A DNA stretch of 64,000 bases from Promethearchaeota archaeon. Lineage in GTDB: Archaea; Asgardarchaeota; Lokiarchaeia; Sigyniarchaeales; SOKP01. A program made the translations under genes and the position numbers. Under the pieces are notes generated by a model that saw only the letters and a list, made by a program, of their open reading frames with translations, did not search any database and was not told the DNA's origin. The stretch is taken from assembly GCA_048937405.1 (NCBI GenBank), contig JBHLNF010000006.1, forward strand, positions 160,001 to 224,000, in the 5' to 3' direction. Below are positions 21,638 through 48,012 of this stretch, piece after piece; positions within the stretch are counted from its first letter, which is position 1, and each line of letters starts with the position of its first letter.

Positions 21638-21895
21638 ATGATCATTGAAGATTTTTATTCCGTTAATAATTATAAAGAGAAGATGAACCTTATCGCTCTA
21701 TCTCCTTCAAGCAAATTTGTTTTATATATATTAAAGCAGCGAGGTCCTTTAAAAGAGAAAGAAATTATTAAAAAAACTTTATTACCAAAACGAACAATTG
21801 CTTATGCTTTAAAAAAACTTCAGGAAATGAATTTTATTAGAAAATCAAAAGATATTTATGATAAACGGGTAAGTATTTTTGAAAGTTTAATATGA
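21638..21895 (+). CDS. Small MarR-like winged-helix protein
   Basis: LSPSSKFVLYIL...LPKRTIAYALKKL...DKR motif. Confidence 0.75.
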   Translation: MIIEDFYSVNNYKEKMNLIALSPSSKFVLYILKQRGPLKEKEIIKKTLLPKRTIAYALKKLQEMNFIRKSKDIYDKRVSIFESLI

Positions 21896-21917
21896 GATAA
21901 ATAACTTTCCTGATTTT

Positions 21918-26758: not shown

Positions 26759-26909
26759 TTTTTTTGATTAATAGAACTTTTATTAATTTGAACTATTGAT
26801 GAATAGGAAAAAAAAGGAAATAATTTATTTTTTCTGATTAGATTTCATAACTCAAATGTCAAATTTGAATATAAGACAATGATCACTATTGATCATTGTT
26901 TATTCAAAA

Positions 26910-27164
26910 TTACATTACAAATGTCTTAATCATAGCATTAATTTGTTCAAAATCGTAATGTTTAATGGTGATTGCACCAACAGGACAATATACATCACAA
27001 GTTCCACATCCCTTGCATAATCCTGAATTAATTAAAGATTTTTTAATGGGTAAATTCACTTCCTCAAATTCTTTTAATACATTCAATATTTCTATTACAT
27101 TATAAGAACAAGCATCTTTACAGGTTCCACAACCGATACATATCTCTTGATCTACTTCCGCTAC
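26910..27164 (-). pseudogene. Start-less remnant of an hdrA 3' end (84 codons, 2x[4Fe-4S] domain)
   Basis: Translates VAEVDQEICIGCGTCKDAC...CKGCGTCDVYCPVGAITIKHYDFEQINAMIKTFVM*, a diverged copy of 31003-31257; in-frame TAA just upstream and no start codon. Confidence 0.85.
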
Positions 27165-27455
27165 TAAAAGTTATAAGATTTAGAGGAAATTACTCAGATA
27201 TTCATCAAAATCAAACGTATGAAATATATATAGGTGAATTTCCAAGAGATGTTAATAAGACTAAGATAATTAGATGCTTTATTGGCATTCCACTAAAATT
27301 AAGTGCTAAAATGTTTTCAATTGATATTTATAATACCTTTTCTAATTATATCTACAAGGTTTCTTGATCAAAAAAGGTCAATATGTAGAAAAATGATCAT
27401 GAAAAAAGTTTAAATATATTAAAAAGAAATAAATATTATCAAAAAATGGAAGAGA

Positions 27456-27860
27456 TTGATAATAATGAAAGAATATGTATCAGTTCCAACTGATTGGCCT
27501 GATAAGATTATAAGAAATATGATTAAAACATATTGCAATACATTCAAAAGTTCTACGAAAGGTTTTGATGGGTTTAAAGTAGAAACCCAAAATGAGAATA
27601 AACTCTCATTATCAAGTGGTTCAAAAAAATCTTTGAAATTTCTTGGAGCTATAAAAAATGAATTTAGTGCCACTATAGAATTAAATTTAGATACTTCCCA
27701 AAAACAGATTATAATTGATTTTGACGAAGGAACGATGTTGAAAGTTGGAAAGATGGGTATGAAAAAACGCCAAAACTTTTGGAAAATATTTTCTGATGGA
27801 ATAAGAGAAGCTATACAAGAAGCAATTGAAGAGATTCAAAACAAACAAAAAGACTCATAA
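27456..27860 (+). CDS. Hypothetical protein (134 aa) upstream of SIR2-TPR gene
   Basis: Clean ORF, same strand as and 44 nt from the next gene; no motif recognised. Confidence 0.6.
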   Translation: MIIMKEYVSVPTDWPDKIIRNMIKTYCNTFKSSTKGFDGFKVETQNENKLSLSSGSKKSLKFLGAIKNEFSATIELNLDTSQKQIIIDFDEGTMLKVGKMGMKKRQNFWKIFSDGIREAIQEAIEEIQNKQKDS

Positions 27861-27904
27861 ATTTTTTATTTTATTGTTTAATATTAAAAGGAGATTTATT
27901 TAAA

Positions 27905-30505: not shown

Positions 30506-30734
30506 TCTTAAAGTAACTGAAATTTTTAATATTTCTCATTATGAGAGGTTTTCATATTTATGATATCCTTATTATTTTGGGTCTAATCGTAGATCTTCTC
30601 TAAATTTTCATCAAAATTAAACTCCTAATTTATCTTTCCAAACCAATTTCAAAGGAAATTGATACAAATTTTAAAAATTCTCGACCTTTATGACTTTATT
30701 TATGTTTTAAGAGTATATTGATATTAAAACGATT

Positions 30735-30989
30735 CTAAATAATTATTGCTCGTTTTTTCATATGTATCTTTTTGAGAACAAAATGGCCCAATAGAGAGCA
30801 AAGGATGACTGTTAAAGGAAATACGAAGGCTAATTTTATAATAGGATAAAGGCTTAAGGAGGCAAATCCAAGGGATATAACAACAAGGATGGGTGGATGT
30901 ACAAAGTATATATAATATGCGCTGTCAGATAGATTCCGTAGTATAGATCCTTGTCTGTCGAATATAAGATTATGATTACCAATGATCAC
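30735..30989 (-). pseudogene. C-terminal fragment of an acyltransferase-3 (OafA/OpgC-like) membrane protein
   Basis: LSDSAYYIYFVHPPIL motif and only two TMs; abuts the hdrA 3' flank. Confidence 0.65.
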
Positions 30990-31002
30990 TGTTTATTCAA
31001 AA

Positions 31003-34000
31003 TTACATTACTAATGTCTTAATCATAGCATTAATTTGTTCAAAATCGTAATGTTTAATGGTGATTGCACTAGCAGGACAGTTTACAGCACAAGTTCCAC
31101 ATCCCTTGCATAATCCTGAATTAATTAAAGATTTTTTAATGGGTAAACTTACTTCTTCATATTCTTTTAGGATTTCTGTGATTTCTATTGCATTATATGA
31201 ACATGCTTCTACGCATGTTCCGCATCCAATACACCTCTCTTGATCTACTTCCGCTATTAATCCAGAGGTGGTAATTTCTTCTGTACTTAAAAATCTGCAC
31301 GCTCTTCCAGCAGCACCATTTGCTTGTGATATTGAATCTTGTATATTTTTTGGCCAGTGAGCACATCCACATAGGAAAATACCATCAGTTGCAAAATCTA
31401 AAGGTCTTAATTTTACATGTGCTTCTAAGAAAAAACCATTTTTATCTAATGGAACTTTAAGCATCTTTGCCAATTCATCTAAGTTATCTGAGGGGATCAT
31501 AGGAGTTGATAATACAATTAAATCTGTTGTAAATTTGAGATTTTCTTGCAAATTGGTATCAAAAACATCAATTTCAAATTTACTTGTTCCACTATTTTTC
31601 TCTTTAATTTTTGGGGGTTTATCTAAATCATATCTTAAAAATATAGCATCTTTTCTTCGTTCACGATAATATCTTTCAAATTCTTTCTTTGCCATTTGAA
31701 GATCTCTATAGAGAACTATTAATTTAAGGTCTTGTTTTAATTCTTTGAGAAGGTTAATATTTTTTATGGCACTTTCACAACATATGTTTGAACAGTAGGT
31801 TATCCCTTTTTCTTGTCTTGCATTAACACATAACAAAGTGGTGATATGATTAAGCTTATCCAACCATGATTTATCTTCATCTTTTAATCTCTGCTCTAAT
31901 TGTAATTGAGTAATTACATTGTGATTAGAATAGGTATATTCAAAAAATTCATTAGGTTTCAATTCTTGTCCTCCAGTAGCAACAATAATAGTCCCAACTT
32001 TTAATTCATGAGTTTTATTATCTGAGTCGATAACATATATATTATAATTACCAAGATATCCAGTAATATCATCCAAATTGGAATTTAAAAAGAGTTGGAT
32101 ATTCTTATTCTTTTCAACCTTTACTATTGTCTCATTTAATAAAACTGAAGCATCCTCTTGAGTTGGATATAGCATATTTAAGAATCTTAAATTTCCACCT
32201 AAGTAATTCTCTTTTTCTATAAGATACACGGTAAAACCTTGATATGCGATATTCAAAGCAGCAGTCATCCCAGATATTCCTCCACCAATTATTAATGCAC
32301 TTTGAGTAATTTTCAATTTTTTTTCTTCTTGTGATTTTAATAATCTTGATTTAGCAATTCCCATTCTTATTAAATCAATTGCTTTTTCCGTGGCAAGTTC
32401 TTTTTCTGTCATATGTACCCATGAACATTGATCACGGATATTTACCATATCAAATAAATATTTATTTAAACCCGCTTCCTGACATGTCTCCTGAAATAAA
32501 GATTCATGTGTTCTTGGAGTACAAGAAGCAACAATAAATCTATTTAAATTATATTCGTTTATTACTTCCTTGATTCGCTCTTGGGAATCTGAACTACAAG
32601 AGTATAAGTTATCTTCACAAAAAACTACATTAGGTAATGCTTTTATGTGTCCGATAACTTGAGGAATATCAATATATTTTCCAATATTAATACCACAATG
32701 ACAAATAAGAACTCCAATTCTAGGAATATCTGTTTCTTTAACGATTTTCTCTGGTATCTCGATAATCTTTTCTTTCGTTTCAGTAAATTTATAGGAATTA
32801 AGTAAAGTTGCTACTTGTGAGGCTACCCCACTTGCATCGGCTACTGTTTCTGGTATATCCATTGGACCTTGACAAAATCCAGCTAAAAAAATACCTTCTT
32901 TAGAGGATAAAGATTTATTATAATAAGATTTCTCTTTGAAGAAATTATACTCATCCAATTCGATATCCAAAATTTTAGCTAATTCTTTTGTTCCCACTGA
33001 TGGGACTAAAGGTGTAGCTAATACTACTAAATTTGCATTAAAGTCCTTAAATTCACCCGTTTTTAGATTTTCATAATGAATTACTAAGTCATTTGTTTCA
33101 GGATCTTCTAAAATTCTGCTAATTTTAGTCTGGAAATACTTTACTCCGTATTCTTCTTGAGCTCTCTGAGTAAATTCATAAAAATTTTTACCATAAGCTC
33201 TAACATCATGTCTAAAAACGAAACACTTTGAATTTTCAGAATGTTCTTTGGTAATAATTGCCTCTTTAGCAGTATACATGCAACAAACTGAAGAACAATA
33301 TGGAATACCCTCACGTATATCTCTCGAACCAGCACATTGAATAAACGCAATTACTTTTGGTTCTTTCTCATCACTTGGACGTAAAATATGACCTCCAAAA
33401 GGTCCTGATGCAGATAACATTCGTTCATATTCTAAAGCTGTTACAACATTTTTATAATTATAACCCCATCTTGAGGTTAACTCTTCTCCTAACATGTCAT
33501 AACCAGTAGCAACAACAACGGCACCAACTTTCAATTTTATTTCGTGTGGTTCTTGATCATAATCTATTGCTTCTGCCTTACATACTTTCTCACAAACCCC
33601 ACATACTCCCTTAGTAAGTTTTAAGCATAATTCGGGATCTATTAAATAAACGGGTGGAACTGCTTGCGGAAAAGGAATATAAATAGACTTTCTTTTACCT
33701 AGATTCATATCAAAAATATTAGGAGCTTCAATTTTAGGACAGCTACTAGCACAGTCACCGCAACCTTTACATTTTGTCTCATCAATATATCTAGGTTTTT
33801 TAAGAACTGAAACTTCAAAATTTCCTGATTGACCTGAAATTTTTTGAACTTCATGATAAGTCATTAACTCAATATTAGGATTTCTAAATACTTCTACCAT
33901 TTTAGGGGCAAGAATACATAAACTACAATCATTTGTAGGAAAAGTTTTATCAAGTTGAGCCATTCTTCCTCCAATCGAAGGTGTTTTTTCTACTAAATAA

Positions 34001-34083
34001 ACTTTAAATCCTAATTCAGTTAAATCTAGTGAGCATTGTATTCCGGCTATCCCACCACCAATAACTAAGACTGATCCTTCCAT
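31003..34083 (-). CDS. hdrA: Large HdrA-like flavoprotein (Cys form), close paralogue of 22371-25478
   Basis: Same motif set; near-identical N-terminus. Confidence 0.92.
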   Translation of the reverse strand: MEGSVLVIGGGIAGIQCSLDLTELGFKVYLVEKTPSIGGRMAQLDKTFPTNDCSLCILAPKMVEVFRNPNIELMTYHEVQKISGQSGNFEVSVLKKPRYIDETKCKGCGDCASSCPKIEAPNIFDMNLGKRKSIYIPFPQAVPPVYLIDPELCLKLTKGVCGVCEKVCKAEAIDYDQEPHEIKLKVGAVVVATGYDMLGEELTSRWGYNYKNVVTALEYERMLSASGPFGGHILRPSDEKEPKVIAFIQCAGSRDIREGIPYCSSVCCMYTAKEAIITKEHSENSKCFVFRHDVRAYGKNFYEFTQRAQEEYGVKYFQTKISRILEDPETNDLVIHYENLKTGEFKDFNANLVVLATPLVPSVGTKELAKILDIELDEYNFFKEKSYYNKSLSSKEGIFLAGFCQGPMDIPETVADASGVASQVATLLNSYKFTETKEKIIEIPEKIVKETDIPRIGVLICHCGINIGKYIDIPQVIGHIKALPNVVFCEDNLYSCSSDSQERIKEVINEYNLNRFIVASCTPRTHESLFQETCQEAGLNKYLFDMVNIRDQCSWVHMTEKELATEKAIDLIRMGIAKSRLLKSQEEKKLKITQSALIIGGGISGMTAALNIAYQGFTVYLIEKENYLGGNLRFLNMLYPTQEDASVLLNETIVKVEKNKNIQLFLNSNLDDITGYLGNYNIYVIDSDNKTHELKVGTIIVATGGQELKPNEFFEYTYSNHNVITQLQLEQRLKDEDKSWLDKLNHITTLLCVNARQEKGITYCSNICCESAIKNINLLKELKQDLKLIVLYRDLQMAKKEFERYYRERRKDAIFLRYDLDKPPKIKEKNSGTSKFEIDVFDTNLQENLKFTTDLIVLSTPMIPSDNLDELAKMLKVPLDKNGFFLEAHVKLRPLDFATDGIFLCGCAHWPKNIQDSISQANGAAGRACRFLSTEEITTSGLIAEVDQERCIGCGTCVEACSYNAIEITEILKEYEEVSLPIKKSLINSGLCKGCGTCAVNCPASAITIKHYDFEQINAMIKTLVM

Positions 34084-34717
34084 TATTTAACACTATTAAA
34101 TTTTTTTGATAAAAATGAGTTTTACACTTTTTTTTTCCGTTGATTAAAAATAAAAGAAATATAATTATATAAATATATTTATGATAAATGATCAAGATCC
34201 ACCATTTTTAACTCTGGTAATGATCGTTTCTAAAAACTCTACAGATAATAGTTATCCTGATCCGTCATAATATTCTTTATTTTTTAGGCTTTATGAATGT
34301 TTTGTTCGTTTATATTAATATTCGTTTGTTTGGAGATCAAGTTCATAATTTTATTTTCTGTGAATGGCTGATTTCGGTATTTCCACTTATTTTTATAATT
34401 GAATATCTGCATTATGGCTTTTCGTGGTAATAATACAGGAATTTGTGATCAATTCCCAACAGAGATATCATTGAAAATCACTTAATTGATCAAATATTAT
34501 GTATTTTATGTAGATAATGGATAAGTAGACATTCAAGTAAATGTATTTATATGTTTAACTCTTCTTACAGAATTATTTCTTATTATCTTAAATTAAACTA
34601 AATTGATTTTCTAAATAGTTTTTGAATAATGGAGAAAGTTTAAAAAGCATGCTGTGAAATATTATTAATCAATCCATTGTGAATTATATAATAGTAATTT
34701 CAATTAGGTAAAAAACT

Positions 34718-35266
34718 ATGTTTTGTCCTGAATGTGGTGTAGAATTAATAGCACCAAATCAAAAGTTCTGTCATAATTGTGGAACTGAAATTCTAGCTAC
34801 TTCAAAAATGTCGGATTACAAAAATCAGAGAATTCAAAATGAAATAGCACCTCAAATGTATTATGTTCCTATTAAACCGAAAATTGAATTGAAAAGAGGT
34901 CCACCAGGGAAATATTCTAATATGAGCTTTTGGTTTGCTTTAGTTTCTCTTATAATAGGATTAGCAACTTTTTATGTAAGTTATATTATTAGTTCTTACT
35001 TTTTTCCTTATTATTCGATAAATTATAATATTAGATGGCATATTGGAATAATTTTTGTTGTTTTGTCATTAAGAGCGGGAGGATTAATCTTGGGAATTTT
35101 TTCTAGAATTAATAATTCAAAAGCTGTAAAACTCGAACCTTACAATGATCTTGAAAAAGCGGGAAGTATATTAGGAATCTTTGGGATTATTATAAACGCA
35201 ATAGGACTTGTTTTTTCTGCTATTGCCCCAATCTCCATACTTCGCCCAATACCAGATTATTATTAA
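34718..35266 (+). CDS. Zinc-ribbon (CPECG...FCHNCG) membrane protein
   Basis: N-terminal zinc ribbon and three hydrophobic segments. Confidence 0.75.
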   Translation: MFCPECGVELIAPNQKFCHNCGTEILATSKMSDYKNQRIQNEIAPQMYYVPIKPKIELKRGPPGKYSNMSFWFALVSLIIGLATFYVSYIISSYFFPYYSINYNIRWHIGIIFVVLSLRAGGLILGIFSRINNSKAVKLEPYNDLEKAGSILGIFGIIINAIGLVFSAIAPISILRPIPDYY

Positions 35267-35407
35267 AATATTTATTAGAAATTTCTCCTTCTTTTAATAT
35301 AAATTTTATATTAGAGATAATGTTATTTGAAGCAGTTAAAAGATTTTTAGCATTTAATGAAAGTTTTATTTAGTTAAGAATTCAATTAAAATAGAAGGTG
35401 ATTATTT

Positions 35408-36487
35408 TTGACGTTAAAAACGAATATTACTGAAATGTTTGGAATTAAGCACCCAATCGCAAATGCTGCAATGGGTCCTTACCGAACAAACGAGATGGCT
35501 ATAGCAGTCGCAGATGCGGGAGCTCTAGGGATGATCTCACACACAAACCAATCTATGGATGGTAGGGAAGAAAGTGCATTAGTTGCAATGAAGAAAAATC
35601 TTGATTATGTTGTAGAACATACAGATGGGATTTTTGGGTTCAATATAAGGACTTCGAGATTAACAACAGATTGTGACAAATTAATTTCCGAAACCGCAAA
35701 GCATATAATGGCTAATCCTAAATTGAAAGAGCAATGTCTTTACGCTCTAAGTAGTGCGGGTTCGGCAACAAGAATAGCCCAGAATCCTGAATTCAAGAAA
35801 TTAAGGGAAAACTCACAGGTTAAGCACTTCCATGTTGCCCCTGCACTCTGGTTGGCAGATAAATGTGTGAACGCGGGATGTGACGGGCTTGTGGTAACTG
35901 GGTTTGAAGGTGGTGGACATCAATCCTATGAAAAAGTAGGGGGATTAGTATTATTGCAACAGGTACAACAAAAATACCCAGATATTCCAAAAATCGCATG
36001 TGGTGGATTTGCCACTGGTGACGGTCTTGCCGCAGCCCTAGCTATTGGGGCAGGGGGTATTTCCATGGGATCGAGATTTATTGCATCGATCGAGAGTGAA
36101 TTCCATGAAAAATACAAAGGTATAGTACCCCCCGCAAAAGCTCAAGATACTGTTGTGAGAACAGGTTCTTTAGGAACCATTAGACTCTGGAAGAACAAAT
36201 TTGCGATGGCAAAAGGATTAGTAAAGACTAAAGAAGAAAAAATCGCTGAAGAAAAAGCGAAGGAGGAACATAGATCTGAAATTTCAAAAGAAGAACTTAT
36301 GGAAGAATTAAGAAAAGATACAATTGCCCAATATGCTGTTTATGAGGGTGATATGGATAATGGGTATGTATTATTAGGGCAGAGTATAGGTATTGTAAAC
36401 CAAATAGACGGTATTCCCGATATTATCGAAACTATTGTTAAAGACGCAGAAAAAGCACTAAAAAAAGCTGTAACGTATGTAGATTAA
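35408..36487 (+). CDS. Nitronate monooxygenase / FabK-like FMN oxidoreductase
   Basis: IKHPI.NAAMG, GFEGGGH, ACGGFATG and MGSRF motifs. Confidence 0.88.
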   Translation: MTLKTNITEMFGIKHPIANAAMGPYRTNEMAIAVADAGALGMISHTNQSMDGREESALVAMKKNLDYVVEHTDGIFGFNIRTSRLTTDCDKLISETAKHIMANPKLKEQCLYALSSAGSATRIAQNPEFKKLRENSQVKHFHVAPALWLADKCVNAGCDGLVVTGFEGGGHQSYEKVGGLVLLQQVQQKYPDIPKIACGGFATGDGLAAALAIGAGGISMGSRFIASIESEFHEKYKGIVPPAKAQDTVVRTGSLGTIRLWKNKFAMAKGLVKTKEEKIAEEKAKEEHRSEISKEELMEELRKDTIAQYAVYEGDMDNGYVLLGQSIGIVNQIDGIPDIIETIVKDAEKALKKAVTYVD

Positions 36488-36813
36488 GTCTGCTCTTCTT
36501 TATTAAGCAAATCACTTTTTTTTTATTCTTTTTAGAAATATAAGATCTATAATCTATGAAAATATTATAGTAAATAAAAATAAGCACAACGTCTAAACTT
36601 TTACTTAGTACAAGATATTGCTCAAAAGAGTGTGAATGTGCACACATATAACCATATTTGCATCTATAAATGTTCAAGTGAAAATTAATTATCCTAAATA
36701 AGAAAAAGAATTAATTATATACTACATAAATGAATGATTTTCTACATTCATTTTTCAATGAAATTAAAAACAAGATTAATATTTCTCAGAATATTTCTCA
36801 GAATGAGATTTAT

Positions 36814-37479
36814 TTAATAAATAAATGGAATTAATCTTTTAGTTTTTTTCTTATAATCTTCAAATTCTTTACCAAATTTCTCCAGTAAAATTTTTTCTTC
36901 TTCCAGTATACGCATTCTATATATTAAAAAAGTATATGTAAACATAATAATAAGGGTAATAATACATCTGAAAACAAAACAAAATCCAATAGTTGCAATT
37001 AAACCACCCGAATACATCGGATTTCTAATATATTTATATACTCCCTGATTAAAGAGTTTATGATCATCTAAAGTTGTTAATTCTGCTGTTCCAAATCGTC
37101 CTAATTGCACTCTTGCCACAAGAATAAGTAAGCTACCTGTAAGAAACAAAATAAATCCTATATAACTGATAAAAATTCCATCCCAGAAGGGAATAATTCT
37201 AGATATCAGCAACTTATTCTCTAGATATGCCCCTATTAAGAAAAAAGGAGACAATAATAGCATAGTTAAGATCAAAATATCAAAAATTTTTGAAGCTTGT
37301 TTTTCTTCTGGAAGAGAACGTATTATCGTATCTGTAAGAGTAAACATATATGCAATAAGTAAGTATATAACATAAATTGGAATTGAGTATATCTCTGGTA
37401 CTATAATTATGTAGAAAATGTTCTGATAGAGAAGATAAACGAAAATGAAGAGGAGAAGTTTTTTCCCAAGATCTTTCAT
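36814..37479 (-). CDS. Isoprenylcysteine carboxyl methyltransferase (ICMT/PEMT) family membrane protein
   Basis: GVYKYIRNPMY and RILEEE..L...FG..FEDY motifs. Confidence 0.85.
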   Translation of the reverse strand: MKDLGKKLLLFIFVYLLYQNIFYIIIVPEIYSIPIYVIYLLIAYMFTLTDTIIRSLPEEKQASKIFDILILTMLLLSPFFLIGAYLENKLLISRIIPFWDGIFISYIGFILFLTGSLLILVARVQLGRFGTAELTTLDDHKLFNQGVYKYIRNPMYSGGLIATIGFCFVFRCIITLIIMFTYTFLIYRMRILEEEKILLEKFGKEFEDYKKKTKRLIPFIY

Positions 37480-37529
37480 TTTTATAAAAAATTTGGTTTT
37501 TTATGATTTAAATCTATAGCACATCATGT

Positions 37530-37970
37530 TTAAATTGTTTGCAATGGCCCTAATTTCTTTATTTTATCAGTAAATTCTGTTATAACTTCAGCGAATCGTT
37601 TCCCTTCAGATGCGCTTACCCATTCAAGTCTAAATCTTTTATCAAGACTAAACATTTTCAATACGTCTTTAAAACGTTCAAATCTATCTCTTGCAAATTC
37701 ATTTCCTTTCAAATAGTGACAATCTCCGATGTGACATCCTGTTACAATGACACCATCAATACCATCTTTAAATGCTTCTAAAATGAAAGCAGGATCTACT
37801 CTCCCAGAGCACATTACCCTCACTATCCTAATAGTTGAAGGGTATTGAAATCGTGAGACCCCAGCTAAATCTGCTCCTGCATAACTACACCAATTACAAC
37901 AGAAACATAAGATATTGGGGTGAAATTCCTTTTCTATTCCTTTCTTTTTTGACTTGGACATATAATACAC
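37530..37970 (-). CDS. mvhD: MvhD (Cys form)
   Basis: FCCNWCSY, CSGRVD and GCHIGDCHY motifs. Confidence 0.95.
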   Translation of the reverse strand: MYYMSKSKKKGIEKEFHPNILCFCCNWCSYAGADLAGVSRFQYPSTIRIVRVMCSGRVDPAFILEAFKDGIDGVIVTGCHIGDCHYLKGNEFARDRFERFKDVLKMFSLDKRFRLEWVSASEGKRFAEVITEFTDKIKKLGPLQTI

Positions 37971-37978
37971 TTATTAAT

Positions 37979-40900
37979 TTAGATTTGTACTAAAAGTGCA
38001 GAAATCATAGCATGAATTTGTTCAAAACCAAAATGTTTTATTACTATTGTCGAATTAGGGCATTGAGCACCACAAGTACCACATCCTTTACAAAGTGCCG
38101 GATTAACATGAGATTTCATTATAGGCATTGTAAAATCTTCGAACGCTCTTTCTTTCTCTATTAATTCTATCGCATTAAATTGACAGACTTCGACACAACT
38201 TCCACAGCCAATACAATTTTCTTCTATTACAACAGCTACAAGTCCAGATGTTACAAGCTTTTCAGAGCTTAGAATTTTGACTGCCTGAGCAGCAGCTCCA
38301 TTGGATTGTGCGATTGATTCTCGGAGATCTTTTGGTGAATGCGCACACCCACATAAGTATATCCCATCAGTTGCAAAATCGATTGGTCTCAATTTGACAT
38401 GAGCTTCCAAAAAGAATTTGTCCTCATTAAGTGGGACTTTTAACATTTTTGCTAATTCTTCATTTTCTTTTATGGGTGCTACGAGACCTGTACTTAATAC
38501 AATTAAATCAGGATTTATTTCAATCTTTCCCAAATCTGGATTAGTTACTATAATTTTTAACTCCTTATTCTTCATTTTTAATTCTGGAGGTTTATTCTCA
38601 ACATATCTAATGAAAACAACTTTTTTATCTCGTGCTAAGTTATAGTATTTTTCTTTAAAACCATATGTTCTAATATCACGATATAAAATGACAATTTCTA
38701 TGTTAGGATTAAGTTCTTTCGCTTTTAAAGCGTTCTTTATAGCTTCTGAACAGCAGACCCGACTACAATAGGGAAAATCCTCATTTCTAGATCCAACGCA
38801 TTGAATCATAACTATCGATTTCAATGCTTTTATTTTATCTGTAGTAAAAAGTTCTTTTTCAAATTGAGTTTGGGTTATAATTCTTTGATCTTTTCCAAAA
38901 TTATATTCCTTAGGTTGATATTGTTTTGCTCCAGTTGCCACAATTATTATTCCATGTTCAAGATCGATAATTTTACCATTATTTCCATAGCTTACGTTTG
39001 TGGAAAAATTACCTATATATCCTGAAATTCCATTAATTTGAGCATTTTTAAATACATGAATAAGTTGATTACTTTCAATATTTTTAATTAGGATTTTAAG
39101 ATATTCTTGAATATCATCATTTTCAAGAGTCCGATAAATATTTTTAGCAATCCCCCCTAAAGAACCTTCCTTTTCAACTAAGAAGATTTCATAACCTTGA
39201 GAGGCGAGATTCAATGCTGCTGTCATTCCTGAAACTCCCCCTCCTATAACTAAACCTTTATCTATTACAGAGATTTCCTGTTCTTGTAATGGGATTAATT
39301 GGCTAGCCTTTGCTACTGACATGCGTAATAGATCTTTTGATTTTGCTGTTGCTTTTTCAGGTTCATGCATATGGACCCATGAACATTGATCTCGAATATT
39401 AACCATTTCAAAAAGATACTTATTTAAACCAACCTCACGGATTGTTGCTTGAAATAACGGTTCATGTGTTCTTGGAGTGCAAGATGCAACGATAACTCTA
39501 TTAAGTTTATTTTTTATAATTTTTTCTTTAATATTGGTTTGGGTATCTGCTGAACATGTATATAAATTATGTTCAGCATAGACAACATTGGGTAAGGTTT
39601 TAACATATTCAACTACATTAGGAACATCGACAACCCCACCAATATTTATGCCACAATGACATATAAATACACCTATACGAGGTGATTGATCACTTACATC
39701 TAACTCTTCTGGTAGTTCTTTCTTAGTAACTAATTTGTTTCTTGCTTCTGATAAAAGAACATTAACACAGCCAGCAGCAGCACTAGCTTCAATGACAGTT
39801 TCTGGAATATCTTTAGGTGTTGCGAAAGATCCACACACATAAATTCCCGGTCTTGAAGTTTCTACTGGGCTAAAAGTACCCGTTTTACAAAATCCATATT
39901 CATTTAACTGAATATCTAATTTTTGTGCTAATTCGTTTGCTTTCTGTTTAGGTTGCATCCCTACAGAGAGAACGACTAGATTAAAAATTTCTTCAATTAC
40001 TTTACCATTTTCTGTTTCATAATAAACCTTTAAATCTTTAGAGTCGGGAATCTCTTTAATGGAAGAAATTCTACGCCTGATATATCTTACACCATATTCA
40101 TCTTTTGCTCGTTCAATATATTTGTCAAAGTCCTTTCCGTATGCTCTGATATCCATCGTAAAAATTGTTGGTTTAATAATATTCATATGTTCTTTTGCTA
40201 TTACTGCTTCTTTGGTAGTATACATACAACACACAGAAGAACAGTAATCAATTCTATGTTTTCTATCTCTTGAACCTATACAATGTAGAAAAGCAATTTT
40301 TTTAGGGATAATTCCATCGGAAGGGCGAAGTATTAAACCTGAATGTGGACCACTAGCACTTAATATACGTTCAAACTCAATACTGGTAATCACATTTAAA
40401 TGCTTACCGTAACCTAATTCAGTCAAAGGAGTAGGATTATATTCATCAAATCCAATTGCGAGTACTACAGCTCCCACATCTAAAGTTATTAATTTATCTT
40501 GAAGTTCATATTCTATTGCTTTTGCTTTACATATACCTTTGCAAATACCACATCCTATACATTTATCTTTATTAATTGAGAACACTAGCGGAACTGCTTG
40601 AGGAAATTTTACAGAAATTGCTGCAATATTAGAAAGTTTCTCATTAAAGAAATCAATAGCTTCTATAGGACATTGTCGAGCACATAAACCGCACCCTGTA
40701 CATTTATTTTGGTCCAAACGAAGGGTTCTTTGAGTTAAATCCACTTTAAAATTACCTGGAACACCTTCGATTTTTTCGAGTGATGAATTGATTAGAATTT
40801 CGATATTTTCATGTCGACCAGTTTGTACTAATTTAGGGGCAAGAATACAAATAGCACAATCATTAGTTGGAAAAGTTTTATCTAATTGAGACATAACTCC

Positions 40901-41020
40901 CCCAATACTAGTTGTAGATTCAGCAAGGTATACTTTATAGCCAGAATCAGCCAAATCTATTGAAGCTTGAATACCAGCAATTCCACCACCAATAACAAGG
41001 ACAGCTCCCACTTTCTCCAT
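37979..41020 (-). CDS. hdrA: Large HdrA-like flavoprotein (Cys form)
   Basis: LDKTFPTNDCAICI, CHCG, LYTCS, ASCTPRTHE and NIRDQCSWVH motifs. Confidence 0.92.
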   Translation of the reverse strand: MEKVGAVLVIGGGIAGIQASIDLADSGYKVYLAESTTSIGGVMSQLDKTFPTNDCAICILAPKLVQTGRHENIEILINSSLEKIEGVPGNFKVDLTQRTLRLDQNKCTGCGLCARQCPIEAIDFFNEKLSNIAAISVKFPQAVPLVFSINKDKCIGCGICKGICKAKAIEYELQDKLITLDVGAVVLAIGFDEYNPTPLTELGYGKHLNVITSIEFERILSASGPHSGLILRPSDGIIPKKIAFLHCIGSRDRKHRIDYCSSVCCMYTTKEAVIAKEHMNIIKPTIFTMDIRAYGKDFDKYIERAKDEYGVRYIRRRISSIKEIPDSKDLKVYYETENGKVIEEIFNLVVLSVGMQPKQKANELAQKLDIQLNEYGFCKTGTFSPVETSRPGIYVCGSFATPKDIPETVIEASAAAGCVNVLLSEARNKLVTKKELPEELDVSDQSPRIGVFICHCGINIGGVVDVPNVVEYVKTLPNVVYAEHNLYTCSADTQTNIKEKIIKNKLNRVIVASCTPRTHEPLFQATIREVGLNKYLFEMVNIRDQCSWVHMHEPEKATAKSKDLLRMSVAKASQLIPLQEQEISVIDKGLVIGGGVSGMTAALNLASQGYEIFLVEKEGSLGGIAKNIYRTLENDDIQEYLKILIKNIESNQLIHVFKNAQINGISGYIGNFSTNVSYGNNGKIIDLEHGIIIVATGAKQYQPKEYNFGKDQRIITQTQFEKELFTTDKIKALKSIVMIQCVGSRNEDFPYCSRVCCSEAIKNALKAKELNPNIEIVILYRDIRTYGFKEKYYNLARDKKVVFIRYVENKPPELKMKNKELKIIVTNPDLGKIEINPDLIVLSTGLVAPIKENEELAKMLKVPLNEDKFFLEAHVKLRPIDFATDGIYLCGCAHSPKDLRESIAQSNGAAAQAVKILSSEKLVTSGLVAVVIEENCIGCGSCVEVCQFNAIELIEKERAFEDFTMPIMKSHVNPALCKGCGTCGAQCPNSTIVIKHFGFEQIHAMISALLVQI

Positions 41021-42297
41021 TATTTCTCCTCAACGATTTGATTAGGTTCTATTACCTTTATAATATCAACTAAAAACTCGGAAAAATCTAAAATATCAAT
41101 AGATGAAAAATCATCATAATCTTTTTTTAGACAAGTCAAATGCATTCGACATTTTGGACAAGATGTAATCATTTTTGTTCCAACAGCTTTAGCTTCTAAA
41201 AGGCGTTTATATCGTAAAGCTTTAGATTTTTCATTACAATTCATCCAAGAATTCACACCACAACAATAAGAATTTTCTTTATTATGCTCCATTTCTTTAA
41301 AGTTAAATCCTATTTTCTTTAAATATCTAAAAATTTCTCGGACTTTCTCAGTTATGTTATTATGTTTAGGTAAAAATCTACTTAACCTACAAGGATCATG
41401 ATAAGTAAAAGGAATGATATTATTAGATTCATTAGGATTTTCAAATTGAACTTTACCTTGTTTCCATTTATCATAGATATATTCAATAATATGACTGACT
41501 TCAAATTTCACATCAAAATCCTCAAATAATTTTGGATAATCAATTTTAAAGGTTCTATAACATTCAGCACATGCGGTAATAATTTTTGTGATCCCAGCAT
41601 TTTCAAATCGATTTACATTTTTCTTAGCTAATTCAATAAAACTTTCGAATTTTGCTTGACCCCAATATAAATCATGTCCACAACATATCTCATCTTTAAG
41701 AACTACTATAGGTTCTTTTTCCAATTTACAGATAATCTTTAGAGTGCTTTCTGCTATAGATAGTGAATCTTGAAATTCATAATTAAAAAAGGGTAAGCAT
41801 CCTACGTAATATAATACATTTCCCCTATCTGAAATATTACATCCATTTGGAATCCAATCTAGAGGTCTATTAACTGCAAAATTATCTTGACCCATCATTT
41901 CAGACATTAAAGGATAAATACCTTTATGAGCAATAGAGCGATCAGGATTTTGAATATCTTTTATTCGCATTTTATATCTTGCAATTCTGACAATATCAGC
42001 AAAATTAATGTCTTTAGGGCAGTTTTGCAGACAACTATTGCACATTAAACAATCCCATAAGACTCGGCTATTAATTATCTCATCTTCAAAGCCTTCTAAT
42101 ATCATTTGAATAATTCTACTGGGCGTAAATTTTTGCACTTTACTAACTTGGCATACTCCTGAACAACGGGCGCATTGATAACATTTTTTTAATAAATTAG
42201 TTAAGTCTGGTTCAAATATTTTTCTTAAATATAAATCAAATTCATTTTCTTTTTGTTTTATCTTTTTAGATTCTTCTATCTCTATTATAGGATTCAC
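41020..42297 (-). CDS. HdrD-like Fe-S oxidoreductase, paralogue of 25478-26758
   Basis: Same ferredoxin + CCG motifs; TAATG overlap with hdrA. Confidence 0.88.
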   Translation of the reverse strand: MNPIIEIEESKKIKQKENEFDLYLRKIFEPDLTNLLKKCYQCARCSGVCQVSKVQKFTPSRIIQMILEGFEDEIINSRVLWDCLMCNSCLQNCPKDINFADIVRIARYKMRIKDIQNPDRSIAHKGIYPLMSEMMGQDNFAVNRPLDWIPNGCNISDRGNVLYYVGCLPFFNYEFQDSLSIAESTLKIICKLEKEPIVVLKDEICCGHDLYWGQAKFESFIELAKKNVNRFENAGITKIITACAECYRTFKIDYPKLFEDFDVKFEVSHIIEYIYDKWKQGKVQFENPNESNNIIPFTYHDPCRLSRFLPKHNNITEKVREIFRYLKKIGFNFKEMEHNKENSYCCGVNSWMNCNEKSKALRYKRLLEAKAVGTKMITSCPKCRMHLTCLKKDYDDFSSIDILDFSEFLVDIIKVIEPNQIVEEK

Positions 42298-42301
42298 TTC
42301 C

Positions 42302-43414
42302 TTATCTTAGATCCTTCATAAATTCTTTTCTACGTTCTATTTTTAATTCTGAAAACTTGGAGATTAAATTTTTCATAGTTTGTTTTGTATTTTTATCAAG
42401 TTTTAAATTCATAATAATATTTTTATCTAATGCATTTTGGAATAACTCAATACCTTTTTCGGTTCGAGGAATTACAGTAGTATATTTATCTGGCGATCCA
42501 AGTCCTCCAAAGGAAATATCCGAATAAATATTAGTAAAATCAATACAAGATTTACATGCGGGACGGATATAATTAATTAATTTATTAAAAGGAATATGGA
42601 TAATATTTTCTTTTGAGTTCCTACCTTCAATCTTTAGAATTAAATCTTCTTTAATATTAATTTTTTTTATATCTTCAAATTTTATTTTAAACTCTTTTTC
42701 AAATTTCTCAATTTGAGATTTTTCAAACAAAAAATTATGATAACAGAATAAACCTAAACAAATTTCAATATGTTCTGAAGGGGTAACACCCAAATTTTCC
42801 ATACATCTAATAGTATAAATTTGGCAAGGTGTCCCCACAATTGCTAGCTTTTTAAATTTATAATGACTTAATTGAGGAATTGAACGTGTATATGTACTAA
42901 ATCTTTGTACTTCATCAACTTGTGGAGATATATTTAATATAATTCCTGATGATTTAATTAGATCTTCTTTAGTCTCAGCAAACATTGCTTTTCGTGAAAA
43001 TGGGCCCTCTGCTTTAGACACAATTGCCCCATCAATTATTCTTTTTTCTAATAAGTAATTTAAAAGGGTATTAACTACTCCTCCATCTGTCCCATACTTT
43101 AGAAACTCCTCATCTTTAGTTTGACAAGAATAGATATCTTCAGCAAATCCATATGGCATTGATGAAAAATCAGTGAAATGGTAAGTCTTATTGAGTTCAT
43201 CATCTAAAATATGTGTTTGAGGGCATAAATAATAGCATATACCACACTCGAGGCATGCATCCTTATTTATATACTCTGGAGGAGAATTAGGGTTTTTAAA
43301 ACCTATTACATTTTCAAATGCAGCTGAACAGAAAGAAGTGCATCCTCCACATTCTTGACAGATTCCTTTTTCATGAACTTCTTTAATTAAATCTTGAAAG
43401 GTTTTTATGCTCAT
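42302..43414 (-). CDS. FrhB/FdhB family F420-interacting subunit
   Basis: Two ferredoxin motifs, TDGG, VGTPCQ, LGLFC, CxxCxD and DISFG. Confidence 0.88.
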   Translation of the reverse strand: MSIKTFQDLIKEVHEKGICQECGGCTSFCSAAFENVIGFKNPNSPPEYINKDACLECGICYYLCPQTHILDDELNKTYHFTDFSSMPYGFAEDIYSCQTKDEEFLKYGTDGGVVNTLLNYLLEKRIIDGAIVSKAEGPFSRKAMFAETKEDLIKSSGIILNISPQVDEVQRFSTYTRSIPQLSHYKFKKLAIVGTPCQIYTIRCMENLGVTPSEHIEICLGLFCYHNFLFEKSQIEKFEKEFKIKFEDIKKINIKEDLILKIEGRNSKENIIHIPFNKLINYIRPACKSCIDFTNIYSDISFGGLGSPDKYTTVIPRTEKGIELFQNALDKNIIMNLKLDKNTKQTMKNLISKFSELKIERRKEFMKDLR

Positions 43415-43429
43415 ATTAATAATTTTTTA

Positions 43430-44926
43430 TTACTTCTTTTCCAATTTGATGGATTTACAATTTTTTCTCTTGATACCAGCAATCCTTTCTAATAAGGGTT
43501 GTCCTGGTTTAACATCCTTTAAACTTTTGGATTCTATTAATCCTGCTTTTATTGCTTCTTTATAGATTTTCTCACCTTTTTTATTTCTTGTAATCACTGT
43601 AGACCAGCCACTGGGGGACCCAATTGATCCTACAGAGATATCGGCATAATCAGCAGTCAAATCTTCGCAATAATGACAGTTGTGGCGTGTATAAGATTTA
43701 ACATCATTCAAGGGTACCTTTAAATCTTCACCTGAATCTAAGTAAATAATGAATTTACCACCACTTATGTCCATTTTTGTAACTTTTTTAAAATCTGTTT
43801 TAAATTGTTCGCTAATTAAGGTAAGGACACCTTCATAAGGAAAGGACTCCATACAAAAAAGCCCTATTCTATATTTTATATTTTTGAAAAAACTCTGTCC
43901 ACCTGGAAACCAAGTACCTTTTTCTAAGGCATTCATCATACATGGAACACCAACAACAGCAATATTTTCATAATTTTTTGTTTTATCTATGATTCTTAAT
44001 GTTGAGGCATTAGCATATTTAGTTCCACTTGTCTTATAGAGATCTTTAATATCATCTATAATTACTGGTTCTGGTTTCCATAAATCCTCTGAATGTTTTA
44101 CAGCTACAACCGCATCAACTAGTTTTTTTGTGAGTAGATATTCTGATAAAGAAGTTACTATCCCTCCATCTTGTCGTACACTTTTAATTTCATCTTTAGT
44201 GGTCGAAGCAGAATATGTATTGATATAACCATTTATTTTTTCTGAAAATTTTAAAGATTTATTAAGTTTATTTATAGTCTTGCCTGCTTGCTCAATTGAA
44301 AATGATCTTGGACAAACAGAATAACATAAACCGCATTTCATACAAGTTTCATCATCAATCTCTAAAATATCTGCTGTTACAGTAATTGCATTAACTGGAC
44401 AAATTGAGGAACACCAACCACATTGACAGCACACTTTAGAATCAAACACTATAGATACGGGCTCAAAAAAATGCTCAATGAAATCATTAGGTAAATCTTT
44501 AACTTGATATCTATAGAAATATTCTTTTTCCTCAACTTCTTTCTCTTCTCCCTTAACTTTTTTAATTATTGTTTTAGTTTGGATCTCAACAATTTCTTCA
44601 ATATAGCCTTGTTCTTTAAGGTAAAAAATATCGCGAATTATATTTTCAGGTGGAAAATCTTTTACTCTTTTAACAATTTCTTCTAAAAATAACGGTTCCT
44701 CACCTTTTAGTCTTTCATATAATAATTTGCGCTCTGTTTCAGCATCAATCATAGAATCTAATGTTTCATAAAATTGCTCTTCGGAATATTTTCCAGCTTT
44801 TAGAATTTCATCTTTTGCTTCAAAAAATGCTCTAATTTGAAAGTTCTCAACTGCTTTATAGGTAGCATCCATTAGATTTCTTGGTGATATTCCATTAAAA
44901 TTGTTGCTTTTTGAAATTTGAACCAT
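43430..44926 (-). CDS. FrhB/FdhB family protein with N-terminal winged-helix-like extension (start moved to ATG 44926)
   Basis: QDGG, VGVPC, IGLFCME, CHYCED and ADISVGS motifs. The TTG start at 45010 lies inside the SECIS-like hairpin, so the in-frame ATG at 44926 is preferred. Confidence 0.85.
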   Translation of the reverse strand: MVQISKSNNFNGISPRNLMDATYKAVENFQIRAFFEAKDEILKAGKYSEEQFYETLDSMIDAETERKLLYERLKGEEPLFLEEIVKRVKDFPPENIIRDIFYLKEQGYIEEIVEIQTKTIIKKVKGEEKEVEEKEYFYRYQVKDLPNDFIEHFFEPVSIVFDSKVCCQCGWCSSICPVNAITVTADILEIDDETCMKCGLCYSVCPRSFSIEQAGKTINKLNKSLKFSEKINGYINTYSASTTKDEIKSVRQDGGIVTSLSEYLLTKKLVDAVVAVKHSEDLWKPEPVIIDDIKDLYKTSGTKYANASTLRIIDKTKNYENIAVVGVPCMMNALEKGTWFPGGQSFFKNIKYRIGLFCMESFPYEGVLTLISEQFKTDFKKVTKMDISGGKFIIYLDSGEDLKVPLNDVKSYTRHNCHYCEDLTADYADISVGSIGSPSGWSTVITRNKKGEKIYKEAIKAGLIESKSLKDVKPGQPLLERIAGIKRKNCKSIKLEKK

Positions 44927-44987: not shown

Positions 44988-45058
44988 ATACCCCTTCCCT
45001 TGCAAGGCAAGTCCTCTTATAACTACAATTTTTTTATAAGAATCATTCTGCAGGGGTA
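44988..45058 (-). promoter_or_regulatory. Eukaryote-like SECIS element overlapping the mvhD stop codon
   Basis: Minus strand: UACCCCU-GCAG-AAUGAU-UCUUAUAA-AAAAAUUGUAG-UUAUAAGA-GGAC-UUGC...AGGGGUA. AUGA/GA core, 8-bp upper stem, A-rich apical loop; directly 3' of two genes with in-frame UGAs. Confidence 0.8.
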
Positions 45059-45504
45059 GTTATAACTTGTTTTGTTTCAATTTCTGGTAATTGATCCTGC
45101 AAATTAAGTAGATTTGGTCCGGCTTTTTCAACCTTCCTCAAAGCATCTTCTACACTTTTTACAAATTTCTCCGATTCTGCTGCACTTAACCAATACATAT
45201 TTATTCTTTGACTACCAAAACCTCTAGATTCTAAGATTCGGTTTGCTAAATCTACATGTTTTTGGGCTGTGAAATTTCCAATTTTGAACTGACACTCATT
45301 AGGACGTCATCCAACAACCATGACACCATCAGCTCCAGCACGAATACTATAGAGAATATGCTTAACATCGACCCTGCCAGTACATCTTACTTTAATGATT
45401 TTTACAGCTGGTGTATACTTCATTCGGGAGACGCCAGCTAAATCAGCTGCACTATAGCCTCACTTTAAACAAGCAAAAACAATTAAGTTATAATTATATA
45501 CCAT
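45043..45504 (-). CDS. mvhD: Selenocysteine-containing MvhD/VhuD (153 aa, Sec15 and Sec66); missed by ORF track
   Basis: MVYNYNLIVFACLK-U-GYSAADLAGVSRMKY...RCTGRVD...VVG-U-RPNECQF...WLSAAE. TGA at 45460-62 and 45307-09 align to Cys in the two Cys paralogues in this window. Confidence 0.92.
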
Positions 45505-45510
45505 ATTTGT

Positions 45511-47488
45511 TTAACCACCTCCTAAGATCCCATCAATTTCAGCAAATAATTGATGATCTCGATAATATCTGATATCAATAGCCTGTGTAGGACAACATGT
45601 AGCACAAATACCACATCCATCACAATTTATCTCATCAATAAAAGCACCAATATCCTTCTTGATTCTAATTGCACTTTTGGGACATTCTTTTTCACAACGT
45701 CGGCATGAAATACAAAATTCACTATCCACCTCAGCAGTAATTAGTTCCATATCAATTTTTCCTGGTACTGTTAGCTCGGCTACCTTACTCGCTGCTGCTC
45801 TGGCTTGAGAAACTGAATAAGCAATATTTTTAGGTCCTTGAGCAAAACCAGCTATAAAAATACCTTTTGATTTCGTTTCTTGGGGCATGAGTCCAAAATG
45901 TAATTCCGTAAGAAAACCATACATATTAGTATCCAGATTTAAAACGTTTACAATCTGTTGAGTACCTTTTGATGGAAGTGCCGCTGTAGATAATACGACT
46001 AAATCCGCATCAATTTTAACTATTTTATCTGTTAGAGTCGAGTATACACGAACATTCACGTTTTTTGTTTCAGGATCTTCAGAAATTTCACCTACTTTTC
46101 CCCGAATCATTCTAATACCAGCATCCTTAGCTCTTTCATAATACTCTTCAAATCCTTTCTCAGGAGTTCTTATATCAATATAGCAAATCGTAATCTTCGC
46201 GTCGGGAAATTCTTCAAGGAGTAATCGCCCATTTTTTAGTGCAAGCATACAACAAACACCACTGCAATAAGTCCGTTCTGTTTCTCGACTACCTACGCAT
46301 TGAATAAATACAATCTCTTTAGGTTTTTTATTATCAGAGATTCTGTGCACATGTCCTTCAAGTGGTCCATTTGGGGCTAATATACGTTCTAATTGGGCTT
46401 GCGTTATAACATTTTCAATTTCCCCATATCCATATTCACCAAATGGTTCATGAATATCCCACCCCGTTGCAATTATAATTGTCCCAACTTCAATCTTAAC
46501 TTCATTTGGTTCTTGGCTGAAATCAATAGCATCTAATTCACAGGCATCCACACATGAGAAACATTCTATGCAAGCATTTCTATCAATATCATACAAAAAT
46601 GGCACCGCTTGACCAAATGGTATATCAATTGCTTTTCGTGCGCCTAGATTTTCATCAAAATAATTTGTAGTATAAACAGGACATACTTCACTGCAGGCTC
46701 CACACCCATTACAATCTTCTGTTGTATAACGTGGTTTTTTCTCAACAATCACAGTATAATTACCTACGTAACCTTCAACTTTCTTTACTTCACTAAAACT
46801 TAATATTTCAATATTCTCATTGCGGTTGACTTCTAACATTTTAGGACCACAAATTCATATAGCACAATCATCTGTAGGAAATGTTCTATCCAATTGAGCC
46901 ATTCTTCCTCCAATCGTTGTTTTTTGTTCTACTAAATAAACTTTGATACCTTGATTTGCTAGATCAAGAGCTGCATTCATTCCACCAATCCCACCCCCTA
47001 CTACTAATGTCGCTTTAGTTACTGGGACAGTTTTAATAGGAACTGGTTCTAATCGTTTTGCTCTTTCAATACCACTTTTTACTAAGATTTTTGCTTTTTC
47101 TGTAGCTTCTTCTTTAGTATCCGTGCACCAATTTTGTGTCATTATGCTTTTGAGCATTAAAGACTCTACAATGTTCACGGACATTCACCATTTGAAAGTA
47201 ATAAGGATTTAAATCAGTTTTAGCAATTGTCCCTCTATAAATCACTTCATGCGTTCGTGGAGTTCAAGCTGAAGCTACAATTCTATTCAAATTCTTTTCC
47301 TTGATATCTTCGATAATTTCATTTTGAGCATTATCAGTTCAAAGAAATGAGTTTTTCTTTGATAATATAATTTCCTCTCCAAGATTCTTCACATACTCGG
47401 TTAATTCATCACAATCTACTTTTGTTCGAATATTTACACCTCATTGACAAGCATAGTATCCAATCCGATGATTTTCGTTATTACTCAT
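45511..47488 (-). CDS. hdrA: Selenocysteine-containing HdrA (647 aa after removal of 34-nt intron; Sec16, 50, 75, 200); join of 47488-47166 and 47131-45511
   Basis: ATG 47488; ACQ-U-GVNI (47441-43), SFL-U-TD (47339-41), ASA-U-TPRTHE (47264-66), NVREHC[S]W and DCAI-U-ICGPKM (46855-57). Each TGA aligns to a conserved Cys in the other HdrAs in this window. Confidence 0.9.
47132..47165 (-). other. 34-nt bulge-helix-bulge (tRNA-type) intron in hdrA
   Basis: UUGU/ACAA 4-bp helix flanked by 3-nt bulges AGA and AAU; removal gives TGT AG|T TGG (Cys-Ser-Trp) and restores the frame. Confidence 0.85.
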
Positions 47489-48012
47489 CTATTTTTACAC
47501 ATCCACCTCTAGCTTTTACATAATTGTATAATTATTAATTTCTTAGATTTTTATTGAATGATTTTTATTGTCCAATATTGATCTTATTGTAACGATCGAT
47601 ATTAAATATTTTTTTTAATAGTATTTACATTTTCAATACTTTTAATACTTACTGTTTATCGATATAAACAATTATTTGTAAAGCAATCACAACATCACAA
47701 CATTTTTGGCCAGATTGAAGATTTTTGACTAATTATTTTTGGAAACAGTCATATAAAGAGGAAATTATGATCGAAATAAATAATTTTATTATATAAATCT
47801 TTATATTGATAAAAAATTAGAAAAAAAGTATATCTCATCATAAAATATTTTTCAGTAATCTATCATAATCGGCTATTCTTATTAGTTTAATTAGGTTACT
47901 TCTAGCATTATGTTTAATTTGGGAAATGTTTTTATAATTAGTGATCTATTTTGATAATTAATCATATTTTTTAATAACTTTTTAAATAAAACCTAATTCA
48001 AAGACACAGTAA

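Follow-up and report, generated by a model that had tools for sequence, protein, structure and literature searches.

Six in-frame UGA codons and one downstream SECIS element in an hdrA-vhuD gene pair of a Promethearchaeota archaeon

A 64,000-nucleotide stretch of DNA from a Promethearchaeota archaeon (GenBank assembly GCA_048937405.1, contig JBHLNF010000006.1, positions 160,001 to 224,000 of the forward strand; hereafter the window) was analysed. We focused on hdrA and vhuD (mvhD), two adjacent genes on the minus strand of the interval 45043-47488, where no gene was read on the plus strand. Four internal UGA codons were found in hdrA and two in vhuD, and one selenocysteine insertion sequence (SECIS) of the Lokiarchaeota type (lokiSECIS) was located at the end of vhuD. 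Very probably, all six UGAs are decoded as selenocysteine (Sec) through this single downstream element on a shared mRNA. The sequence anatomy, the conservation of the locus, the covariation and uniqueness of the SECIS, and the machinery genes of the genome demonstrated the setting of this decoding. The central claim, a six-Sec hdrA-vhuD pair with one SECIS, is already known, and the locus is a correct rediscovery. According to Mariotti et al. (2016, PMC4989117), the HdrA of Lokiarchaeota has five possible Sec positions, of which up to four are occupied, and VhuD has two Sec. They also report invariably short hdrA-vhuD spacers, the avoidance of UGA as hdrA stop, and one lokiSECIS after VhuD for as many as six UGA within ~2 kb. 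A 2024 ISME J survey of 227 Asgard genomes (PMC11227280) describes hdrA-frhD pairs that share one SECIS, which is eSECIS-like and of type I. A first-pass annotation of the window had proposed a Sec-rich HdrA and polycistronic recoding after comparison with methanococci only. Both proposals were supported here, and both were already present in the published passages on Lokiarchaeota.

The first-pass annotation had placed the UGAs at codons 16, 50, 75 and 200 of hdrA and at codons 15 and 66 of vhuD, each on a Cys column of paralogues in the window. Direct reading of the sequence gave the same positions. The paralogues carried CHC, LYxCS, ASCTP, DCxxC, CNWC and GCH at the TGA columns, as had been quoted, and the solved structures agreed with them at all six. 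The structures were 5ODC_A (M. thermolithotrophicus HdrA), 5ODC_D (MvhD), and 9SFI_A and 9SFI_K (M. maripaludis HdrA and VhuD). Codon 200 of hdrA aligned with the X (Sec197) of 9SFI_A and with Cys in 8RVU. Three of the six TGAs coincided with known Sec positions of Methanococcus HdrA and VhuD. The sample for conservation consisted of 16 same-genus orthologues and ~46 further complete loci (Promethearchaeota/Promethearchaeia, Asgard, Loki-type), and the TGA/Cys columns were kept in both parts of it. The orthologous loci, from ~60 genomes, showed 75-92% protein identity and frames that were otherwise full-length. Five positions (hdrA 16, 75 and 200; vhuD 15 and 66) were TGA in every orthologue sampled, and an exchange of TGA with TGT or TGC was seen at hdrA codon 50 only. 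This alternation is an apparent signature of Sec/Cys exchange. The conserved Cys codons next to the UGA positions were never TGA in the sampled orthologues. The hdrA stop was always TAA or TAG (17 of 17 in the same-genus alignment) and never TGA. In the genome as a whole, TGA was an ordinary stop that closed 14.6% of the open frames of at least 300 codons, about as many as TAG.

The present hdrA was the Sec-richest of its genome, where four other hdrA genes had two or three Sec each. One orthologue (L021, G011:C38) had TGA at every known Sec position of HdrA, five in all (16, 50, 75, 200 and 614). Its hdrA-vhuD pair would have seven UGA-Sec codons, one above the published 'up to six'. A two-Sec hdrA paralogue of the present genome (C19:135296-133211, minus) had its own lokiSECIS ~100 nt past the stop, and a scan found no vhuD open reading frame (ORF) directly 3' of it. 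Such an hdrA without an adjoining vhuD would depart from the rule that HdrA and VhuD always occur in tandem.

Both the 6-nt gap between the genes and the single SECIS ~2.4 kb from the first UGA had been noted in the first-pass annotation, and they were borne out by the sequence and by a covariance model. From hdrA codon 16 to the AUGA core of the element (45046-45043), the distance was 2,397 nt in the genome and 2,363 nt in the spliced form. AUGA stood directly 5' and GA directly 3' of the main stem, as in a kink-turn, and the 9-bp stem and 11-nt loop with a run of A had the published lokiSECIS geometry (Mariotti 2016). The core was invariant across an alignment of 17 sequences, and the covariance model was built from 17 elements. 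Over 51 loci, compensatory changes were found in 13 of the 14 helix pairs (8 of 9 in the 9-bp stem), figures to be taken with caution since this alignment was fitted to the model. In the same fitted alignment, 95% of the cells in the SECIS helices were paired, against ~50-57% in register-shifted controls. With filters off, the model gave one SECIS in the 64-kb window at 100 bits, with a runner-up at 15 bits. The whole genome had seven matches, and each of the 51 loci had exactly one, placed in every case after vhuD and before the following gene. No second SECIS was found in the coding sequences (CDS) or the 5' untranslated region (UTR) with the model and pattern scans, and the model had no match in 45063-47700. 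Every Sec-hdrA locus of the genome had an in-frame TGA together with a SECIS.

Synonymous variation was examined in 50 orthologues. Over the 20 codons that follow each UGA it was normal, and it fell at the end of vhuD, where helix I overlaps the gene. The normal variation argues against local SECIS hairpins, and a bacterial-style SECIS after each UGA was rejected on this basis. As for the element itself, an extra small hairpin was observed after the GA core and before the 3' strand of helix I (44990-45012, minus), with a stem of 2-4 bp and a loop of 5-7 nt. The loop centred on GC (UUGCAA, AUUGCAA, CUCGCAU, AUGCA), and the hairpin recurred in four paralogous hdrA-linked SECIS of the genome (e.g. 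C28:548876, C19:133211, C13:236030). In addition, three strong matches to the lokiSECIS model (53-64 bits) lay away from hdrA and vhuD, at C19:95097-95176 (+), C16:26609-26689 (-) and C16:26146-26229 (-). The frames 5' of them contained TGA, as in a small membrane-like ORF with GGUGC, and the three matches may belong to other selenoprotein genes.

Genes for tRNA-Sec, PSTK, SepSecS, an EFsec-like GTPase and SelD were found in the genome, in line with the machinery that Sec decoding calls for. SepSecS was identified at 377 bits, and SelD at 185 bits with an in-frame TGA. PSTK was the best family for its gene at 154 bits, and selB was the best family for the EFsec-like GTPase gene at 232 bits. 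In both cases the score was under the curated NCBIfam cut-off and well ahead of the other families. ARAGORN and RF01852 gave no tRNA-Sec on the genome, and the unspliced gene was under the Rfam cut-off. The gene was found by homology to a relative's tRNA-Sec that matched RF01852 at 63 bits. It was interrupted twice, by 34 nt in the D-arm region and by 30 nt in the T-loop, and these insertions were the reason why Rfam and ARAGORN missed it. After their removal in silico, ARAGORN returned SeC(tca) with a UCA anticodon. In the case of the same-genus relative G002, the tRNA-Sec was uninterrupted, with a length of 89 nt.

The hdrA frame was not continuous in the genome. A 34-nt insertion of the bulge-helix-bulge (BHB) type split Ser codon 108 (AG|T) and shifted the frame, so that the first 107 codons and the remainder sat in different frames. 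Under translation table 11, the locus read as fragments. HdrA of 647 amino acids, with Sec at 16, 50, 75 and 200, was obtained only once the insertion (47165..47132) was excised, and Sec200 comes into frame only after this removal. The codon numbering of the first-pass annotation, which had left the insertion unmentioned, held for the sequence without the 34 nt. The insertion was missing in all 16 of the closest, same-genus orthologues, and excision rebuilt the conserved REHC-S-WCTD. The BHB had a 4-bp central helix (UUGU/ACAA), 3-nt bulges (AG|A and AA|U), an intron-side helix h' of 3 bp and an exon-side helix h of 2 or more bp. A strict hBHBh' test was satisfied exactly at the borders that the 16 orthologues had set independently, with a null rate of 3e-4 at random positions. 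The first intron of the tRNA-Sec also satisfied this test. In L065, from another assembly (Loki_b32, ~1255-1290), a 35-nt insertion occupied the same hdrA site with a different loop and kept the BHB through a compensatory UUGC/GCAA central helix. Two EndA genes and RtcB were present in the genome. There was no other copy of the 34-nt insertion in the genome, which argues that by sequence it does not belong to a repeat family. These results indicated that the insertion is a BHB intron by structure and restored frame, and its splicing is predicted. No mention of it was found in the searched passages of PMC4989117 and PMC11227280.

The two genes were identified by their matches to known families. 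Exon 1 of hdrA carried the UGAs of codons 16, 50 and 75 and aligned with residues 2-103 of 5ODC_A. Exon 2 matched M. maripaludis HdrA (9SFI_A) at 568 bits and contained, by Pfam and NCBIfam, the thioredoxin-reductase/FAD domain (FAD/pyridine-nucleotide-disulphide) and the inserted and C-terminal ferredoxin domains. For vhuD, Pfam FlpD gave 143 bits, and NCBIfam VhuD, 9SFI_K and 5ODC_D were also matched. The spacer from the hdrA TAA (45513-45511) to the vhuD ATG (45504) was 6 nt, and a GAGGTGG ribosome-binding motif was located upstream of each ATG. The coordinates of all features are given in Table 1.

Table 1. Features of the hdrA-vhuD locus, its SECIS and the neighbouring genes (window coordinates unless stated otherwise)
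Feature	Coordinates	Strand	Remarks
hdrA	47488..45511	minus	starts at 47488; stop TAA 45513-45511; frame broken by the 34-nt insertion
hdrA exon 1	47166..47488	minus	codons 1-107 and first two bases of codon 108; N-terminal cluster-binding domain
hdrA exon 2	45511..47131	minus	last base of codon 108 to TAA; Pfam matches
vhuD/mvhD	45043..45504	minus	153 codons and terminal TGA (45045-45043); ATG at 45504; preceded by GGAGGTGG
hdrA UGA codon 16	47441..47443	minus	C-x-U motif; aligns with Cys13 of 5ODC_A; TGA in all orthologues examined
hdrA UGA codon 50	47339..47341	minus	aligns with Cys46 of 5ODC_A; TGA in most orthologues, TGT/TGC in ~13
hdrA UGA codon 75	47264..47266	minus	aligns with Cys71 of 5ODC_A; TGA in all orthologues examined
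hdrA UGA codon 200	46855..46857	minus	canonical Sec position (DDCAIU); TGA in all orthologues examined
vhuD UGA codon 15	45460..45462	minus	X in 9SFI_K; Cys of CNWC in 5ODC_D; TGA in all orthologues examined
vhuD UGA codon 66	45307..45309	minus	X in 9SFI_K; Cys of GCH in 5ODC_D; TGA in all orthologues examined
lokiSECIS	44990..45057	minus	fold, covariation and covariance-model match
lokiSECIS outer helix I	ACCCC 45057-45053 with GGGGU 44994-44990	minus	overlaps last vhuD codons
lokiSECIS core AUGA	45046-45043	minus	contains vhuD stop; GA partner at 45013-45012
lokiSECIS helix II	45042-45034 with 45022-45014	minus	9 bp; minimum-free-energy fold
lokiSECIS apical loop	45033-45023	minus	11 nt, AAAAAUUGUAG, starts AAAAA
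BHB (tRNA-intron-type) insertion	47132..47165	minus	34 nt; between Sec75 and Sec200
hdrA low-synonymous block, codons ~5-17	47438..47475	minus	ends just past UGA16; 50 orthologues
tRNA-Sec	C7:230424-230576 (own genome, outside window)		homology to relative's tRNA-Sec; ~230 nt upstream of SepSecS
FrhB-like gene with ferredoxin domain	44926..43433	minus	Pfam; 3' of SECIS
second FrhB-like gene	43414..42305	minus	Pfam
CCG/ferredoxin HdrD-like gene	42297..41023	minus	Pfam

Based on these features, we propose how the locus may work. hdrA and vhuD would be transcribed as one polycistronic mRNA, and each would be translated from its own GAGGTGG motif. Full-length HdrA would require that the splicing endonuclease first excise the 34-nt insertion and that RtcB ligate the exons. 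The PSTK/SepSecS/SelD route would supply Sec-tRNA(Sec), and an EFsec of the archaeal/eukaryal type would deliver it. The single eukaryote-like SECIS, with its kink-turn AUGA...GA and its start at the vhuD stop, would direct the decoding in cis, at distances of 0.26 to 2.4 kb and past the cistron boundary. Being itself part of the SECIS core, the terminal UGA of vhuD would be too close for recoding and would end translation. Termination of hdrA would occur at TAA, in keeping with the avoidance of UGA as hdrA stop. Sec insertion itself, the co-transcription, the splicing and a factor that would bind the kink-turn are what we infer from the sequence. SBP2 was not detectable in the Loki genome according to PMC4989117.

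Several points weigh against decoding of all six UGAs through the single SECIS. The 6-nt spacer is the one indication of hdrA-vhuD co-transcription. With 45 nt to translate before UGA16, a ribosome would arrive there well ahead of the synthesis of the SECIS by a coupled RNA polymerase, and every ribosome that terminates has to open helix I and the AUGA core; the mechanism leaves both unexplained. Rfam, with gathering and permissive thresholds, reported neither a SECIS nor a tRNA in the window, and the lokiSECIS was unrecognised. The scores of EFsec and PSTK were slightly below the curated NCBIfam cut-offs, and the selB model scored over the N-terminal part only (positions 1-274 of 581). In addition, the conserved nucleotides around UGA16 could be a second recoding signal. 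The early UGAs of hdrA, especially codon 16, would then have a separate signal, and the SECIS would serve vhuD or the distal UGAs only. Codons ~5-17 of hdrA were nearly frozen synonymously in the 50 orthologues (synonymous entropy 0.29-0.7, where the mean of the gene is 1.15), including an invariant rare CGG codon, and UGA16 had the context AAUGAGG. The timing problem of a SECIS 2.4 kb downstream would also favour a local element. However, neither a consensus structure nor covariation was found in the block (alifold -0.36), and neither the covariance model nor the pattern scans gave a SECIS-like element there. The nucleotide block was not shared by paralogous Sec-hdrA genes with the same UGA, and synonymous evolution was normal after UGA50, 75 and 200. 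We consider a second signal unlikely. A 12-bp pairing of hdrA codons 9-13 with the sequence just 3' of the SECIS was also tried. Its 3' arm was found in the closest relatives only, its 5' arm was conserved everywhere, and it was rejected because it showed no covariation and matches of this kind were expected by chance.

Other explanations would remove Sec altogether. The UGAs could be read as another amino acid, such as Cys or Trp by a near-cognate tRNA, or through a genome-wide change of the code, and the tolerance of Cys at all six positions in paralogues would suit such a reading. It is very unlikely, as TGA stops long open frames at about the rate of TAG (the 14.6% given above), the genome has a complete Sec pathway with a dedicated UCA-anticodon tRNA, and a SECIS accompanies the in-frame TGA at every Sec-hdrA locus of the genome. 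A decaying pseudogene with six nonsense codons and a frameshifting insertion would look fragmented under table 11, as this locus does, and the 34-nt insertion is indeed missing in the 16 closest orthologues. Decay is extremely unlikely all the same. The same TGA columns recurred in ~60 genomes with 75-92% protein identity and otherwise intact frames, the stops fell on Cys columns only, and the SECIS was conserved with covariation. The insertion itself was a precise BHB that restored a Ser codon and recurred with a compensatory change in L065.

The positions of the Sec residues in HdrA suggested a function. In HdrA, the N-terminal [4Fe-4S] cluster is ligated by Cys of the N-terminal domain and by Cys197 of the partner protomer (PMC9012536); the exact N-terminal ligating Cys were not listed in the searched literature. 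Among 16 paralogues of the genome, only positions 14, 16, 50 and 75 of the N-terminal domain were invariant as Cys or Sec, and Cys107 was not. Together with the ligation by the partner Cys197, this suggested that three or more of the four cluster ligands would be selenolates, namely two or three of U16, U50 and U75 plus U200'. The [2Fe-2S] site of VhuD, next to this cluster, carries two more Sec. In addition, UGA16 would depend on a SECIS that lies 2.4 kb 3' of it, and the BHB insertion would have to be spliced out first; both features suggested that the mRNA would be finished and processed before translation. We tentatively propose that the four HdrA Sec form the ligand set of one Fe-S cluster, and that transcription and translation of this mRNA are separated in a eukaryote-like manner, a reading that we consider plausible and somewhat short of probable. 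The selenolate-ligand reading contradicts a statement in PMC4989117, made before any structure, that the extra HdrA Sec are not cluster ligands. For Sec197, a 2026 cryo-electron microscopy paper proposes a selenenylsulfide role.

Two FrhB/FdhB-like genes and a CCG-domain HdrD-like gene followed the SECIS (41023..44926, minus) with gaps of 4-15 nt, and an FrhB-like gene was also located 3' of the SECIS in 51 related loci. The FrhB-like and HdrD-like genes may be on the hdrA-vhuD transcript. If they were co-transcribed, the SECIS would be intercistronic and not in a 3' UTR. Several Cys-type hdrA paralogues were observed at ~21800-41100 of the window (minus). They were rearranged or fused, with a core, an N-terminal domain and a further core segment, and each was then followed by an mvhD paralogue. 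These forms resembled the fused double HdrA discussed for anaerobic methanotrophic archaea (ANME; PMC9012536).

No known case of long-range Sec recoding would be more extreme than one SECIS that acts across a cistron boundary on six UGAs up to 2.4 kb away. The lokiSECIS operon feeds the argument for an Asgard origin of the eukaryotic SECIS, a point that is already in the literature. Comparative support from the present locus is solid: ~60 loci were compared, both helices of the SECIS showed covariation, and each operon had just one such element. Further additions are a putative selenolate-ligated [4Fe-4S] cluster, a selenoprotein mRNA that would need tRNA-type splicing, and an ultra-conserved RNA block at the first UGA.

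Compared with the published Lokiarchaeota HdrA-VhuD pairs (PMC4989117), nothing essential differed. Those pairs are also tandem genes on one strand with a short spacer and an hdrA stop that is never UGA. They also have Sec at ~200 with extra Sec at conserved N-terminal Cys, and two VhuD Sec ~50 codons apart. One SECIS with AUGA, a 9-bp stem, an 11-nt AAAAA loop and GA overlaps the end of the VhuD CDS, and the present copy is at the published maximum of 4+2. The UGA of the SECIS core doubles as its vhuD stop, an arrangement that the same paper reports for VhuU.1. The hdrA mRNA here additionally bears the 34-nt BHB insertion. A short BHB inside a CDS, whose excision restores a conserved frame, is also known from crenarchaeal cbf5 (PMC2738675). 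In that case the host gene and the phylum differ, whereas the present insertion lies within a selenoprotein mRNA, between Sec75 and Sec200.

The Sec-HdrA and VhuD of Methanococcales (M. maripaludis, 9SFI) are orthologous proteins with the same canonical Sec positions and the same gene order, hdrA-vhuD. Methanococcal HdrA has a single Sec (Sec197) and VhuD has two, whereas the present HdrA would have four. In the literature, the methanococcal SECIS is described as archaeal in type and not as kink-turn or eukaryote-like. The element described here shares with eukaryotic SECIS the layout of helix I, internal loop and helix II. With the eukaryotic SelenoP mRNA it shares a distant 3' SECIS, an AUGA...GA core, an A-rich loop and several UGA-Sec codons. 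However, SelenoP is monocistronic and has two SECIS and SBP2, whereas here one SECIS would serve two cistrons.

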